Assembly (NCBI GenBank): GCA_964526385.1
Contig: CAZGJD010000009.1
Coordinates: forward strand, 8,358 to 72,357
Direction of reading: 5' to 3'
From: an uncultured Candidatus Poseidoniales archaeon
Lineage (GTDB): Archaea > Thermoplasmatota > Poseidoniia > Poseidoniales > Poseidoniaceae
Length of the DNA stretch: 64,000 nucleotides
Shown here: positions 33,371 to 42,352 of the stretch, in pieces
Position numbering within the stretch: the stretch's first letter is position 1
Layout of the letters: each line of letters begins with the position of its first letter
Made by a program: the position numbers and the translations under genes
Notes under the pieces: model-generated
The model's database searches: none
What the model saw: the letters and a program-made list of their open reading frames with translations, nothing else
Told to the model about the DNA's origin: nothing

Positions 33371-34921
33371 TCACTCTGGAATGTAATACAGTTCAACAGA
33401 ACCAGTTCCTAGACTGATTGGTTGACCGACGATGATGTTTTCTGCGACACCAGTCAAGTTGTCTCTTTCTCCAATCACACCTGCCTTCAATAGATGGTTA
33501 ACAGTAACTTCGAAAGCCGCACGAGCAAGAATTGAGTGCTTTGTTCCGGAGACACCATGTCTTCCGATAGCCCTCACTTCACCTTCACTAGTCATGACAT
33601 CTGCAACGAGTAGTAGATGTCTAACGTCAACTTCAAGTCTCGCCCCGTCTAGAGTCAATTGTAATTCATCAACGATAGCCTGTCTCGCCGCTTCGATACC
33701 AAGATATTCATAAATTTCGATTATGCTATTTGTGTATGTTCGTGACCTGTCGATTCCGTCAATGTTGGAAATCTTTGCAAGGTTGCTACCTATTGTCGAT
33801 AAATAGAATTCACCTGTTTTATCATCTAACTGGACGTTCGCTCTTTCGACACCGGGAACGCCTTTCAGCCTTAGATCTCTTATCTTGTCCTCAAGTTGCA
33901 GAAGTTCAGTGTAAGATGGAGGATTCTCAGCGAGTGTCTTCTTATCGTCCTCGGTTTGTATACCCGGTATCAAAGTAAGTGTAGATGGGTTCTTTTCCTT
34001 GTCGGCTTCGACGTAAAGCCTCAAAGCACGAGATAACTTATCTTGTACTTCTGCTCCTGTCATACCTTTTTGTTTTAGGTTACCTTTCTTTAGTTTCAGC
34101 ACAAGTCTCCGCTGGGCTACGTCAGTTTCAATATCAGCAATATTTACTGTTGTTGTGACCTCAATTGCCGCTGCAAGTTTTCTTGCGGAGTCTGCTGAGT
34201 TATTGTTACCTTCACTCAATCTGATTGTCATTGTAGGAGTCGTTGGTACTTTCCTTGCATCGACAATTTCAATGATTCTTGGAAGACCTTGAGTAACGTT
34301 CACAGTAGCAACACCAGCATAGTGGAAAGTACGCATGGTCATCTGCGTACCAGGTTCTCCAATGGATTGAGCAGTTATGATACCTGCCGCTTCGTATGGG
34401 TCTATCATTGCCATGTGTTGAGCAGCGCCTGCTTCCTTGACCAAAGTTTCAGCTTGTTTTTTGGTAAGTTTAGTCATTTCACGCTCGAAAACAGCGGAAG
34501 TAAGGTCGTGAATCGTTTGTTGAGTCAGTGGTACATTCAAAGATTCAGCAGCAGCTGCGATACTTTGGAATACTGCCTCACCAGCAAATTCATCTTCATA
34601 AGAATTCAATTTCTTGTCCTTGTCATATATTTCTAGACTCTGGACAGCTTTTGCAGTTCTTCTTCTCCTTGACGCTCGCTTCATTCTTACAGAAGTTGTC
34701 GCAGAATTATCACCCGATTCCCTAACTGATGAGTTAGCGCCTGTGATGATGTTGTGAATCTTCGTCGCAGTTTCAGCGTCAACTTCACAGTATTCCTTAA
34801 TTTGGTCTGCAGTCAGGATTTTTACGTCATCCCACTTTCTATCATCAGCCAGTTTGTGAGCGTGTTCTTCAGGAACAAGCATATCCATTAATTTCTTTTT
34901 GGTTGCGCTCTTAACTACCAT
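33371..34921 (-). CDS. rpoA2: DNA-directed RNA polymerase subunit A'' with an extra N-terminal ~65 aa module
   Basis: [30 protein letters not shown], ...[13 protein letters not shown]..., [26 protein letters not shown] 34921 overlaps the rpoA' TGA by 1 nt and gives the N-terminus [10 protein letters not shown]. Confidence 0.9.
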
Positions 34922-37900
34922 CACTGGTCACCCCCTTGAGCAGCCTCTGAATCGCCTTCGTCATAACCAAGGTCGAATTCTTTATCTCCACTATCTCGAT
35001 ATTCAGTATTTTTGACCTTTGTAGGCCCATCAGTCCCTAGTGCCTTATCAACGATAACATCGATATTAAATGGCTTACCATGAACTCCTCTGCTAGGATC
35101 AATTCCATCTTCACCATAGGAGAACTGAATGATTCTGTCTGCAGTGTTTCTTACTGACAAATTTTCATCATCGAAAATTTTCAAATCATCCATTGCGTTA
35201 ATCAATCTTCTTTGCATGTAACCAGATTTACTTGTTCTAACCGCTGTGTCGACAAGTGATTCACGTCCAGAAACTGAAAGCATGAAGAATTCTGTTGGTT
35301 CCAATCCTCTCTTGAAAGAAGATGAGATGAATCCTTTCTCTTGAGCGCCTAATGCACCTTGTCTAAAGTGAGGTAAAACACGTTGGTGATAACCTCGCTC
35401 TAATCGAGCACCACGAACTTTAGCTTGGCCAATACTTCCAGCCATCATTGTTAGGTTATCCATGGAACCACGAGCACCCGAGATTGCCATACCAACAGCA
35501 GCGTTGGTTGTACCCTCCTGATTCAGTTCGTTCTTAGCTACTTCACCAGCAGCTTGCTTACCCATGTCAAGAATGACCATGATGTTCTCTTCCAAAGTTT
35601 CCTTTGGAGTTCTTCCTGGGCGTACTTCGTACCCTCGACCATCTTTTCCAAACTTGTCTAATTCTTCTTGAACTTGGCTTCTTGCTTCTGCATTGTGAGC
35701 TTCAATTTGGTTGATGGCTTCAGAAGAAAGATCTTCATCATCGATACCAGTAGTGAAACCTAGCGAGGTACAAGCACCAATAGCCAACCTTGTGAATTCA
35801 TCCAAGAATTTTGCGCCTTCTGTTGGTCCGTTTGTTTGGACAATGGCATCTAAAAGTCTTCCATCTTCTGCACCAATTGCTCTCTTGTCTAATGTACCTG
35901 AGACATTTCCTTCCTTAATTACTACATCATCGTTGGAACGGCTTAAGAATCTCAGATGAATGTTATCAGGAATGATAACCGAAAGCAAATCTTCACCACT
36001 AAAGCACTCACCGTTTGCTGTTTTGTGGACCTTTGGTAGTTTACCAGTGTAGCCGATGTTACCTAGCATTTCCAAACCATGTCTCTTCGAAATCATTGTA
36101 CCTGGCCTTGAAAGTAGATATGCACCGGAAATGTGGTCGTGAATACCACCGATTACCGCTCCACCGTATCTAGGGGTTAGGATATGTTCTTGAACTCTCA
36201 TCAGTATCTTTGCTTCTGCTCTTGCTTCTTCACTCTGAATAATGTGAAGGTTCATTTCGTCTCCATCGAAATCAGCGTTGTATGGAGTACATACTGCAAG
36301 ATTAAATCTGAATGTGTGACCTTCCATTACTCTAACTTCATGGACCATCATAGACATTCTGTGAAGTGAAGGTTGTCGATTAAAAATTACTACATCTCCA
36401 TCGATTAAGTGCCTTTCAACTTGTAATCCTGGCTTAGGGTTACCTGTTCTGAAATCGATTGTGGACAATCTATCTTCAACCTGCGTCCTCTCTCCCCATT
36501 CGTTTTCTGGACTTCCACAATGTGGACAGGAAACCTGCAAATGCTCTGGGAATTCAGTATCCGGGTTTGCCAGTTCAAATTTCCATCTGTGATGTAGGAT
36601 TGCTCTTGGGTCGTCCTCTGGAAGAGGTGTTCCATCAACATCTTCTCCTCTTAGATTTAGGATAGTTGCCCTTTCATCTATAGAATATGTGACCATTTCA
36701 CCAGCTGCTTCATCCTTGCTGATGAATTTCTTAACAACTAAACCTGGCAAAAAGTTTGGAGCAGGCATGACTGAATGAAGGTCGAAACGTTGTGTTGTTT
36801 CCTCCATACATTCAGGGTTGTGACATCTGAATCCAGCGTTAATCAGTCTGCTTCTCTGGTTAATCTTGACTCTTCTTCCGTCTCCTCTAACCACATAATT
36901 AACACCAGGGTGAACCTCTGGCCCTCTGAGAATCATTTGTCTCATTTGTTCCTTGTTTCGTGTTGTAACCCTGATTGGAACTGTTAATTCCTTTGCAATC
37001 TTGGTTGGGACACCTACTTCATTCACACCAAGGTATGGATCAGGAGAGATAACTGACCTTGCACAGAAATTGACTCGCTTTCCAGATAGATTTGACCGGA
37101 ATCGACCTTCCTTTCCTTTCAATCTCTGTGTTAGCGTCTTCAAAGTTCTACCAGATCTGTGACGCGCTGGAGGGATTCCGCTTGTTTGGTTGTCGAAATA
37201 AGTCGTTACGTGATATTGTAGTAACTCCCAAAGGTCTTCGACAATCAGTTGTGGTGCACCTGCATCACGGTTTTCTCTTAATCTTTGATTGATTCTCAGA
37301 ACGTCAACCAGTTTGTGAGTTAGATCGTCTTCAGAACGGTCACCTGAATCAAGGGTAATTGAAGGCCTAACTGTAATTGGTGGAACAGGTAAAACCTGCA
37401 GAATAATCCACTCTGGCCTGTTCTCCCTATGCATACCCAAGAAGATGAGTTGGTCATCAGGTACACCTTGAAGCCATTCTCTGATGTCTCTTGCGTTAAG
37501 CTTTCTTTCAGTTTCTTTTGCGCTTCCTTGATGAGTCATCTTTTCCTTGAAGGTTGTTGGCTTGTCAAGAATAATTTTTCCTTGTTGAGCGTGGCAGTGC
37601 ATGCACTGAGCACGCTTTGCTTCAGAGGTTTTCTTTTCTATTTCTTTGATAATTTTAGAGAATTCAGTTGAACCTACACCGTGCTTGGTGATCAAGTCAC
37701 GGACTCTGTGCCTGTAGTAATCCTGCTCAGACAGTTCAAGGTTGGAAGGGTGAGTTCCAACAGAGCTGTGTAGAAGTATTTGGCTACAAGTGTTACAAGT
37801 TGCCTTTAGAGCAGTTTTGATTAAGTTGACGAAACCTATGTGCACTACAGGTAATTCAAGTTGGATGTGCCCGAAGTGACCAGGGCTTTCGTCATACTTA

Positions 37901-38109
37901 CAGTTGTCAGTCGGACATAGCAAACCTGGTTCGATAACACCCATGTGCGGGTCCATCAATCCCTGTCTGAATGCGTGACCATCGTCTTTGTATGTGTCAG
38001 CAGTCTTGACTTCAACGGATGACATCTTCCTAATTTCCTTAGGGTCCATCAATCCGAACCTTATTCCTGCAATCCTCTTTGGGATTAGTGTTGTAGCATT
38101 TCGACTCAT
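34921..38109 (-). CDS. rpoA1: DNA-directed RNA polymerase subunit A' (1062 aa, with a ~125 aa insertion)
   Basis: [37 protein letters not shown], and the catalytic motif [17 protein letters not shown] overlap with rpoB. Confidence 0.95.
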
Positions 38110-41717: not shown

Positions 41718-41731
41718 GATATCACCTCAGC

Positions 41732-42352
41732 TTAACTGCCCTCCACGATTAGTCTGTAAGCAACTGATTTTCCAGCGGATGGAGATTTGCGTACAACTTT
41801 CAGGACACGGTCAGAAATCCATCCTGCAGGAAGTGGCACGTAGTCTTCAGAATCGGCGTTCGCTTCAACCATCTTTTCGTGGGTTTCTTTGATGACTTGA
41901 ACGACAGGGTCTGAAATCAGAATTTTTGGTAGTAATTCCTTTGCGAGTCTCATTTCTCCAGTTTCGGGGTCATTCTTAAGGAGCCCCCACGGTTCTAATG
42001 CGGATTCTTCATCCTCCACCGGTATTAATTCCTGATGAGGAACAAGTACGTGGTTTAATACGTTGAATTTTTCTCCTGCGAGGTCCAAATCCTCAGCATC
42101 ATCTATTGCAGTTTTAGAGATGGTGATTTTCTTTCCTCTCTTCTTCTGCCTGCGGTTACCTAGCTCAGCAAGCGCATTCATTGCGTCAGTGAAAGTTTGA
42201 TCGTCCTTGGAAACACCAAGAGTTGAGGCTATTTCATCAGCCGTCATGGATTTTATGTCATTCATGTTACGGTCGGTCGCCAACTTGTGTGCGTACTCTT
42301 CCGCAATTCCCATTTCCATTAGGCGTTTTTTTGTTGCCGACTTAACTACCAT
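41732..42352 (-). CDS. rpoH: DNA-directed RNA polymerase subunit H (Rpb5-like C-terminal domain) with an N-terminal extension and an internal insertion
   Basis: The C-terminal part NHVLVPHQELIPVEDEE...LPKILISDPV...VLKVVRKSPSAGKSVAYRLIV fits the RpoH pattern. It is 206 aa, against ~80 aa for typical RpoH by my recollection. It lies first in the operon, as expected. Confidence 0.75.
   Translation of the reverse strand: MVVKSATKKRLMEMGIAEEYAHKLATDRNMNDIKSMTADEIASTLGVSKDDQTFTDAMNALAELGNRRQKKRGKKITISKTAIDDAEDLDLAGEKFNVLNHVLVPHQELIPVEDEESALEPWGLLKNDPETGEMRLAKELLPKILISDPVVQVIKETHEKMVEANADSEDYVPLPAGWISDRVLKVVRKSPSAGKSVAYRLIVEGS

Follow-up and report, generated by a model that had tools for sequence, protein, structure and literature searches.

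Lineage-specific appendages of RNA polymerase (RNAP) are already known, among them the C-terminal domain of the bacterial alpha subunit (alpha-CTD), the eukaryotic Rpb5 jaw, Rpo13 and insertions in beta'. Here we describe an N-terminal module that two RNAP subunits, RpoH (Rpo5) and RpoA'' (Rpo1C, here A''), have in common in an uncultured Candidatus Poseidoniales archaeon. Both are encoded in the archaeal RNAP operon rpoH-rpoB-rpoA'-rpoA'', whose open reading frames (ORFs) lie on the minus strand of a 64,000-nt stretch of DNA (assembly GCA_964526385.1, contig CAZGJD010000009.1, positions 8,358 to 72,357), called the window in the following. Unless stated otherwise, coordinates refer to the window.

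Like the module, alpha-CTD (PF03118) is small and helical, contains two motifs of the helix-hairpin-helix (HhH) kind and is present in two copies per polymerase, each on a flexible linker. It is, however, C-terminal, belongs to the alpha dimer and lies on the upstream side, whereas the module is N-terminal and attached to Rpo5 and Rpo1C at the downstream/lower-jaw side. The resemblance is one of design and not of family membership: the module has no PF03118 match, and alpha-CTD is absent from its top 50 Foldseek matches. The eukaryotic Rpb5 jaw shares with the RpoH module that it is an extra N-terminal domain on Rpb5/H, placed at the lower jaw near downstream DNA; canonical archaeal H lacks this eukaryotic domain (PMC2847245, PMC2675907). 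Fold and sequence of the two are unrelated, the jaw packs rigidly whereas the module is held by a disordered tether of ~37 residues, and the module has a paralogue on A''. The jaw itself was discarded as a candidate, because a Pfam scan of the whole RpoH (E up to 1) returned Rpb5_C only.

In the Sulfolobales and Desulfurococcales, Rpo13 occupies a place next to Rpo5 at the entry channel for DNA, and a contact with downstream DNA has been suggested for it; the absent Rpb5 jaw leaves a groove in which Sulfolobales Rpo13 docks, and its basic tail reaches the DNA entry channel (PMC2675907). Like the module, Rpo13 is a small, helical addition restricted to certain lineages and has a strongly basic stretch, but it is a separate subunit with a helix-turn-helix instead of an (HhH)2 domain fused to H and A'', and the two are not homologous. 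The five-helix topology of the module is that of HHH_5 or (HhH)2 domains, as found at the N-terminus of RadA/Rad51, at the C-terminus of UvrC and in XPF-ERCC1 and FANCM-FAAP24. From these it differs in staying under the Pfam thresholds, in degenerate hairpin glycines, in its acidic character and in a signature of its own (VKS.TKK.L...AH.LA). Finally, the A'' extensions of other Thermoplasmatota have a homologous N-terminal module with a basic linker at the same place; these lineages add HHH_5 arrays and/or a beta-rich domain and have a short RpoH, whereas the Poseidoniales have one diverged A'' module and a copy of it on RpoH.

A common N-terminal module on RpoH and A''

The N-termini of RpoH and A'' can be aligned without gaps over 41 positions, of which 27 are identical and 35 positive (BLASTP, E 1e-14). 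By this measure the similarity, which the first-pass annotation had noticed by eye, lies far above chance. RpoH comprises 206 amino acids (aa; 41732..42352, minus strand) instead of the usual ~80, and A'' 516 aa (33371..34921, minus strand) instead of ~370-400. The RpoH module takes up residues 1-64 (42161..42352, minus strand), as delimited by a structure model and the BLASTP alignment to A'', and its A'' paralogue residues 1-62 (34736..34921, minus strand; module-profile match E 4e-34). Both modules are followed by the basic linkers that had been pointed out before, here called tethers. That of RpoH (residues 65-95; 42068..42160, minus strand) is rich in Arg and Lys (GNRRQKKRGKKITISK, with the run RRQKKRGKK; net charge +8) and continues into an acidic stretch; that of A'' (residues 63-93; 34643..34735, minus strand) is first Ser/Thr-rich and then Arg-rich (net charge +7). 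The isoelectric point (pI) is 12 in both cases. The R/K run and an ITIS motif of the RpoH tether are conserved in orthologues, and the pattern TTVVRRR...RRR recurs in those of A''.

Canonical RpoH and A'' were said to lack such a domain, and indeed the curated models begin at residue 94 of RpoH and at residue 133 of A''. The Rpb5 C-terminal (assembly) domain of RpoH extends over residues 96-206 (41735..42067, minus strand). Pfam Rpb5_C (PF01191) matches residues 96-202 with 45.8 bits (cut-off 23.5), model positions 1-73 being stretched across 107 residues. The NCBIfam RpoH model NF007129 (80 positions, 3-79 covered) aligns with residues 94-204; its score of 50.6 bits misses the cut-off (83) owing to an acidic insertion within the Rpb5-type core. 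This insertion (ETHEKMVEANADSEDYVPLP, residues ~150-178) differs in length between Poseidoniales families, and RpoH of some Poseidoniales genera has a second one of 10 aa after HQELV. In A'', TIGR02389 (rpoA2) covers residues 133-512 (425.1 bits, cut-off 420.65, model positions 3-365 of 367) and Pfam Rpb1_5 residues 101-463; together the Pfam and TIGR02389 matches delimit the canonical body with trigger loop, jaw and rest (33374..34525, minus strand). Between tether and TIGR02389 match lies a non-canonical segment (residues 94-132; 34526..34642, minus strand), within which a 'YD..K' motif is kept in orthologues.

The similarity is not confined to this assembly. The genome to which the window belongs (1.66 Mb, 22 contigs) contains exactly two copies of the module, those of RpoH and A''. 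We found the module in 40 of 41 relatives and, in a class-wide sample, in 105 of 106 Poseidoniales genomes from three families. Nearly all carriers have exactly two copies, one in an ORF of ~200-240 aa and one in an ORF of ~515-530 aa. In addition, 967 RpoH homologues of comparable length, named RpoH/Rpb5, were found in the Poseidoniales. The signature given above is invariant; with regard to basic residues, K4, K8, K9 and H22 are invariant and K34 nearly so.

Several observations suggest that the modules are part of the mature reading frames. A Shine-Dalgarno-like motif (GGAGGTG, GGGGGTG or GGGGTG) precedes every inspected copy by 5-9 nt. Upstream of rpoH, GGGG(T)G or GGAGG occurs at matching spacing in 12 of 12 orthologues inspected; upstream of rpoA'', GGAGGTG or GGGGGTG was seen at conserved spacing in all 11. 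In the window, the motif GGGGTG (42358..42363, minus strand), as read from the sequence, is located 5 nt upstream of the rpoH ATG, and GGGGGTGA (34928..34935, minus strand), within the last rpoA' codons, 6 nt upstream of the rpoA'' ATG. The position of the start does not vary; two genomes use a TTG at the same codon to start rpoH. In orthologues of A'', CTG, GTA or GAG stands directly ahead of the ATG and the upstream in-frame GTG is not conserved; translation therefore begins at the ATG at 34921, as assumed in the first-pass annotation, and not at the GTG.

Differences between orthologous modules are mainly synonymous, for example 22 synonymous versus 4 non-synonymous changes in 46 codons, and the RpoH module matches the Rpb5-type core in its degree of conservation within the order. 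Within the window, the RpoH and A'' modules agree in 85 of 138 nucleotides and use different Ser codon families (AGC vs TCG), which argues for an old duplication and for selection on the protein. We take both copies to be translated and under purifying selection.

The two module-bearing genes are separated by rpoB (38106-41717) and rpoA' (34921-38109), both on the minus strand; rpoA'' overlaps the TGA stop codon of rpoA' by 1 nt. The rpoH ATG follows 46 nt downstream of a tRNA-Lys gene (anticodon UUU; 42399..42474, minus strand; ARAGORN). In further families of the Poseidoniales, the upstream frame of rpoH runs through tRNA-like sequence (..ERPAFNR.VAGSNP..), thus the adjacency of tRNA and rpoH seems to be conserved, and rpoH may be co-transcribed with tRNA-Lys(UUU). 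The translation of rpoA' contains a long insertion (36400-36840) between the Cys pairs RCHNPEC and CPHCG. The Poseidoniales polymerase has several lineage-specific add-ons, this RpoA' insertion included.

Fold and ancestry of the module

AlphaFold2, run on an alignment of 15 modules, predicts a five-helix bundle with helices at residues 6-13, 18-25, 30-34, 38-45 and 52-64/67 and a predicted local distance difference test score (pLDDT) of 82.8. In the full-length RpoH model, the pLDDT is ~86 for the module and ~88 for the Rpb5-type core, while residues 68-104 (about 37 residues) stay below 50 and the predicted TM-score (pTM) is 0.46; this indicates two independent domains, with the module on a flexible tether. 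By probability, the top Foldseek match in the PDB was the C-terminal (HhH)2 domain of UvrC (0.94; root-mean-square deviation 2.0 Å over 59 columns). The (HhH)2 domains of FANCM/FAAP24 (TM-score 0.73), SAM tandems and RadA N-terminal domains were also among the best. Probability, TM-score and root-mean-square deviation are taken as supporting evidence only.

Searches of Pfam, NCBIfam, PHROGs and PDB sequences with the module alone gave no significant match, and the family relationship emerged from profile-profile comparisons (hhalign). The Poseidoniales A'' modules match the N-terminal modules of non-Poseidoniales A'' (probability 92%, E 6.5e-7), and the latter match those repeats in A'' extensions whose HHH_5 identity was confirmed with Pfam (95%, E 4.6e-8). 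A direct comparison of the Poseidoniales module with the HHH_5 profile gave 56% and E 1.2e-4 over 51 columns in the correct register. We assign the module to the (HhH)2/SAM-like five-helix type, linked to Pfam HHH_5 (PF14520) through intermediate profiles. Of the folds that the first-pass annotation had suggested, HhH is thus borne out by model, structure search and profiles, while SAP and Rho-N had to be dropped: no SAP match was obtained at E up to 10 and the model is a five-helix bundle of ~62 residues instead of a motif of ~35, and Rho-N was not supported by a Pfam scan of the module.

The two copies differ in their history. Within the same class, the module profile found no match in the sister families, whose RpoH ORFs, not found with a protein query and identified by a Pfam family search, have 81-121 aa. 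Among 161 Thermoplasmatota genomes, RpoH ORFs measure 76-181 aa outside the Poseidoniales and reach 200 aa or more only within. This makes the RpoH copy an order-specific gain. The lineage-specific gain proposed earlier for both subunits therefore holds for RpoH; the A'' copy was inherited from a widespread A'' head of the Thermoplasmatota, which reads MAKKDT..AL.RRGI....A.K.AD and is followed by a basic linker. At least 18 further families of the Thermoplasmatota have a match to the profile of these A'' heads within the A'' ORF, so that the head is ancestral to much of the phylum.

Depending on the family, the A'' head stands alone or is joined by two or three canonical HHH_5 domains or by a beta-rich domain, and within the Thermoplasmatota the length of the A'' ORF varies between 381 and 970 aa. 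The HHH_5 arrays (E 2e-22 and 2e-30) have intact GIG hairpins, and one HHH_5 repeat in the A'' of another family matches bacterial RNA_pol_A_CTD (25.6 bits). A few families have the canonical short A'', and Thermoplasmatales-like families have a different N-terminal domain of 'LWKD' type, which looks related to the beta-rich domain. The beta-rich domain of ~130 aa (..IWSLP..FPINAKQFRYPF..SARNYTQI..) occurs in one or two copies in many other Thermoplasmatota A''. Neither this domain nor the 'LWKD' type had a Pfam or PDB sequence match.

In a tree of the modules, those of all Poseidoniales A'' form one clade (support 100/99), and the RpoH modules fall outside it without being resolved as a single clade. 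Within the Poseidoniales stem, the A'' head diverged and gave rise, by duplication, to the RpoH copy. Concerted evolution of the two copies is not supported by the tree, as the A'' modules are monophyletic across families. We also considered stand-alone module proteins that might serve as polymerase factors in lineages with a short A''. This idea was rejected, since the matches turned out to be L32e ribosomal proteins headed by a canonical (HhH)2 domain of generic type; hence the non-Poseidoniales A''-head profile is not fully specific. In several other Thermoplasmatota families this L32e, encoded between L6 and L19e, has an N-terminal canonical (HhH)2 domain and a Lys/Glu-rich linker.

The module on virus-like proteins and on a third host protein

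A profile search of 1.84 billion representatives returned 206 cluster representatives with the module, many of them RpoH or A'' fragments. Besides these, tails that are unrelated to polymerase and to each other occur in about 15 singletons and in at least 11 families with several members. All of these proteins share one N-terminal signature, and the match is often limited to the first ~45 residues. Three contigs of 61 and 160 kb (L075, L076) and 93 kb (L077), as well as L040, L042 and L044, contain one module-headed gene each. Such virus-like contigs (61-160 kb) encode PCNA, ribonucleotide reductase, an ERCC4 nuclease, Mom, DNA methylases, FEN and ParA as well as many co-directional ORFans. 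Other module-headed genes are flanked by integrases or are located beside a thymidylate-synthase-like gene on an ORFan-rich contig. No relatives of the module-headed contigs were found in IMG/VR or among GenBank phage records, two weak IMG/VR matches being due to an unrelated phage protein; the term 'virus-like' is therefore based on gene content alone. A 'DNA-dependent RNA polymerase A' gene has been reported in magrovirus-related group D elements by Philosof et al. (PMC5434244), and this annotation might reflect a module-headed gene.

The architectures are diverse. One combines a C2H2 zinc finger, the module and an AAA_15/AAA_21 ATPase; P0195 has a C-terminal copy of the module and P0197 is a module protein of 1292 aa. 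In P0186 (193 aa), a charged linker connects the module to just one TFIIB cyclin repeat (PF00382, 25.9 bits, cut-off 23.6), so that this protein looks like a TFB-like factor in which an HhH head replaces the B-ribbon. It is represented by only two 90%-identity clusters, on contigs of up to 2.7 kb.

In the tree, the captured heads nest inside A''-type or H-type clades. Compared with host genes, both their synonymous sites and their upstream DNA are different, which points to selection on the protein. This looks like a repeated acquisition of the head, kept by selection at the protein level, and not like promoter capture or chimeric assembly.

Every sampled Poseidoniales genome encodes a third host protein with a head of the ancestral type. 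In the genome studied here it has 362 aa, starts with MAKKDTYLALLRRGIDETTAMQLADAGIKIGDLKK and is encoded outside the window, on contig 8 of the same genome (7497-8585), directly after a cluster of L21e, RpoF-like, DUF655 and KsgA genes. Its head matches the non-Poseidoniales A'' profile (E 2e-12) and, by hhalign, the H/A'' module (75%); a coiled coil, a Cys4 motif and a C-terminal domain follow. No Pfam or NCBIfam match was obtained for this protein. The idea that it is a split-off ancestral A'' extension was abandoned, because only its first 35 residues resemble the A'' of sister lineages.

Possible roles of the two heads

What the heads do on the polymerase can be approached from their position. 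Subunit H, which forms a strong association with A'', is part of the lower jaw and cross-links to downstream DNA at +10 to +20 (PMC2847245). The duplicated appendage that the first-pass annotation had recognised on two subunits thus belongs, on both, to the lower jaw, from which we infer that the enzyme carries two mobile arms at the DNA-entry side. In A'', the canonical body starts about 45-50 residues ahead of the base of the trigger loop. We take this start to correspond to the cleft/foot part of the Pol II 'shelf' region that holds Rpb5.

We tentatively favour, at somewhat short of an even chance, that the modules are putative non-specific contact arms for duplex DNA. The two heads, on tethers of ~30-40 residues, would be held at the lower jaw where downstream DNA enters, and the Arg-rich tethers together with the basic face of helices 1-3 (K4, K8, K9, H22, K34) would touch duplex DNA without sequence specificity. 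Such contacts could stabilise promoter and open complexes as well as elongation. In their location, the arms would correspond to the Rpb5 jaw of eukaryotes and to Rpo13 of the Sulfolobales; in design they recall the two flexibly tethered alpha-CTDs of bacteria, which factors contact as well. Arguments in favour are the HhH ancestry, the charge of the tethers and the fact that other lineages have canonical HHH_5 arrays at this very site.

A number of findings weigh against such arms. In its globular part, the module has a negative net charge (-2 and -3, pI 4.9-5.8), and the hairpin glycines are degenerate: hairpin 1 reads MGIA, MGVP or MLVP and hairpin 2 LGVS, CGLD or CEVD. G15 is invariant in RpoH modules only and the second glycine varies in both proteins; A'' of the window has L15 and E46 at these positions, where other orthologues have D, Q, E or S. 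The invariant residues are located on helices 1-2 and not in the hairpins. No Pfam HhH model reached its threshold on the module (the best, HHH_5, gave E 0.058, in 2 of 16 module sequences), and no Foldseek match in the PDB search had an E-value below 0.9, which is owed to the shortness of the domain. Where the A'' N-terminus lies on the enzyme is itself deduced from homology to Rpb1. Finally, exactly this module, frequently no more than its first ~45 residues, has been retained in at least 11 mutually unrelated families of virus-like proteins, which points to a specific partner more than to a general affinity for DNA.

The acidic module, the lost hairpin glycines, the invariant residues on helices 1-2 and the virus-like copies favour the main competing explanation, which on the whole we consider rather unlikely, though deserving attention: the module could be a docking handle for protein, either within a pair of H-type and A''-type heads or at a common site on polymerase or a transcription factor, and mobile elements would have copied it. 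This would agree with its rarity (206 of 1.84 billion representatives) and with the fact that the same head precedes mutually unrelated tails in at least 11 multi-member families. It would also fit the gene content of the virus-like contigs and the integrase neighbours. In host genomes, searches with the module profile find no copies other than those of RNAP, and the captured copies nest in the A''-type and H-type clades while differing at synonymous sites and in upstream DNA. P0186, with its TFIIB cyclin repeat joined to the module in place of the usual B-ribbon, and the third host protein, with its ancestral-type module next to rpoF, would be plausible users of such a handle. The best fold matches include SAM tandems and the heterodimeric domains of FANCM/FAAP24, and (HhH)2 domains pair in XPF-ERCC1 or FANCM-FAAP24. 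On the other hand, a generic DNA-binding head would equally suit viral proteins that act on DNA, the viral nature and the host of the contigs, which have no relatives in IMG/VR or GenBank phage records, are presumptive, and the TFIIB-repeat protein is rare, with two clusters on short contigs.

A more elaborate version of the docking idea, which we regard as doubtful, is that the heads of H and A'' pair into an (HhH)2 platform on the lower jaw, or share one binding site there, and that viral or plasmid-like copies, acquired repeatedly, dock on the host polymerase or compete for this site, leading to a take-over of transcription by mimicry; the third host protein would then be a cellular client. 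The effectors with the copied handle would include the TFB-like cyclin-repeat protein, the ABC-type ATPase, the 1292-aa enzyme and a dozen further families. DNA-contact arms and docking would not be mutually exclusive, as alpha-CTD does both.

Two further explanations account for less. The modules and their Arg-rich tethers might fold back on acidic polymerase surfaces, such as the RpoH insertion or the A' tail, and thereby assist assembly or stabilisation of H and A'' in the lower jaw. There are indeed an acidic stretch after the basic run in RpoH, an acidic insertion in its Rpb5_C core and an acidic C-terminal tail in A', and H is strongly associated with A'' (PMC2847245). We nevertheless judge a fold-back improbable: in the AlphaFold2 model the module does not pack against the core of RpoH (pTM 0.46, tether pLDDT <50), the retention of the module on unrelated virus-like proteins would be left unexplained, and the canonical HhH arrays at the same place in other lineages are unlike a structural staple.

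Even less probable is, in our view, that the modules bind RNA, either the nascent transcript or rRNA, and couple transcription to translation or processing, for example. The Arg-rich tethers would bind any nucleic acid, some Thermoplasmatota L32e have N-terminal (HhH)2 domains, and the third module protein is encoded in the L21e-rpoF-DUF655-ksgA cluster. HhH domains, however, typically bind the backbones of duplex DNA. Moreover, H and the A'' jaw are located at the DNA entry, far from the RNA exit (PMC2847245, PMC2675907). An artefact (wrong starts, an untranslated leader or an assembly duplication) is already refuted by the conservation of the pair in about 100 independent genomes of three families, by the divergence of the copies (Ser codons AGC vs TCG, 85 of 138 nucleotides identical), by Shine-Dalgarno-like motifs and conserved starts including the TTG at the same codon, by the strong surplus of synonymous substitutions and by the lack of any other in-frame start close to the canonical domains.

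No description of the A'' and RpoH heads was found in the literature on Poseidoniales viruses, magroviruses, archaeal RNAP subunits or HhH domains with rpoA2; a 2026 survey of domain evolution in archaeal RNAP subunits treats Rpo6 and Rpo8 (PMC13257274). With two tethered HhH heads, inferred to lie at the DNA entry, the polymerase of the Poseidoniales (Marine Group II) is unlike every structurally studied archaeal enzyme. The A'' N-terminus in the Thermoplasmatota is a recurrent accretion site for HhH domains, with subunits from 381 to 970 aa, and this repeated collecting suggests that polymerase surfaces gain contacts to nucleic acids or factors again and again at the same site. Viral mimicry, if true, would be the newest element of the finding. 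The presence of the head on virus-like proteins offers a testable entry to the interplay of virus and host, and the head may be usable as a sequence marker that ties uncultured mobile elements to Poseidoniales hosts.

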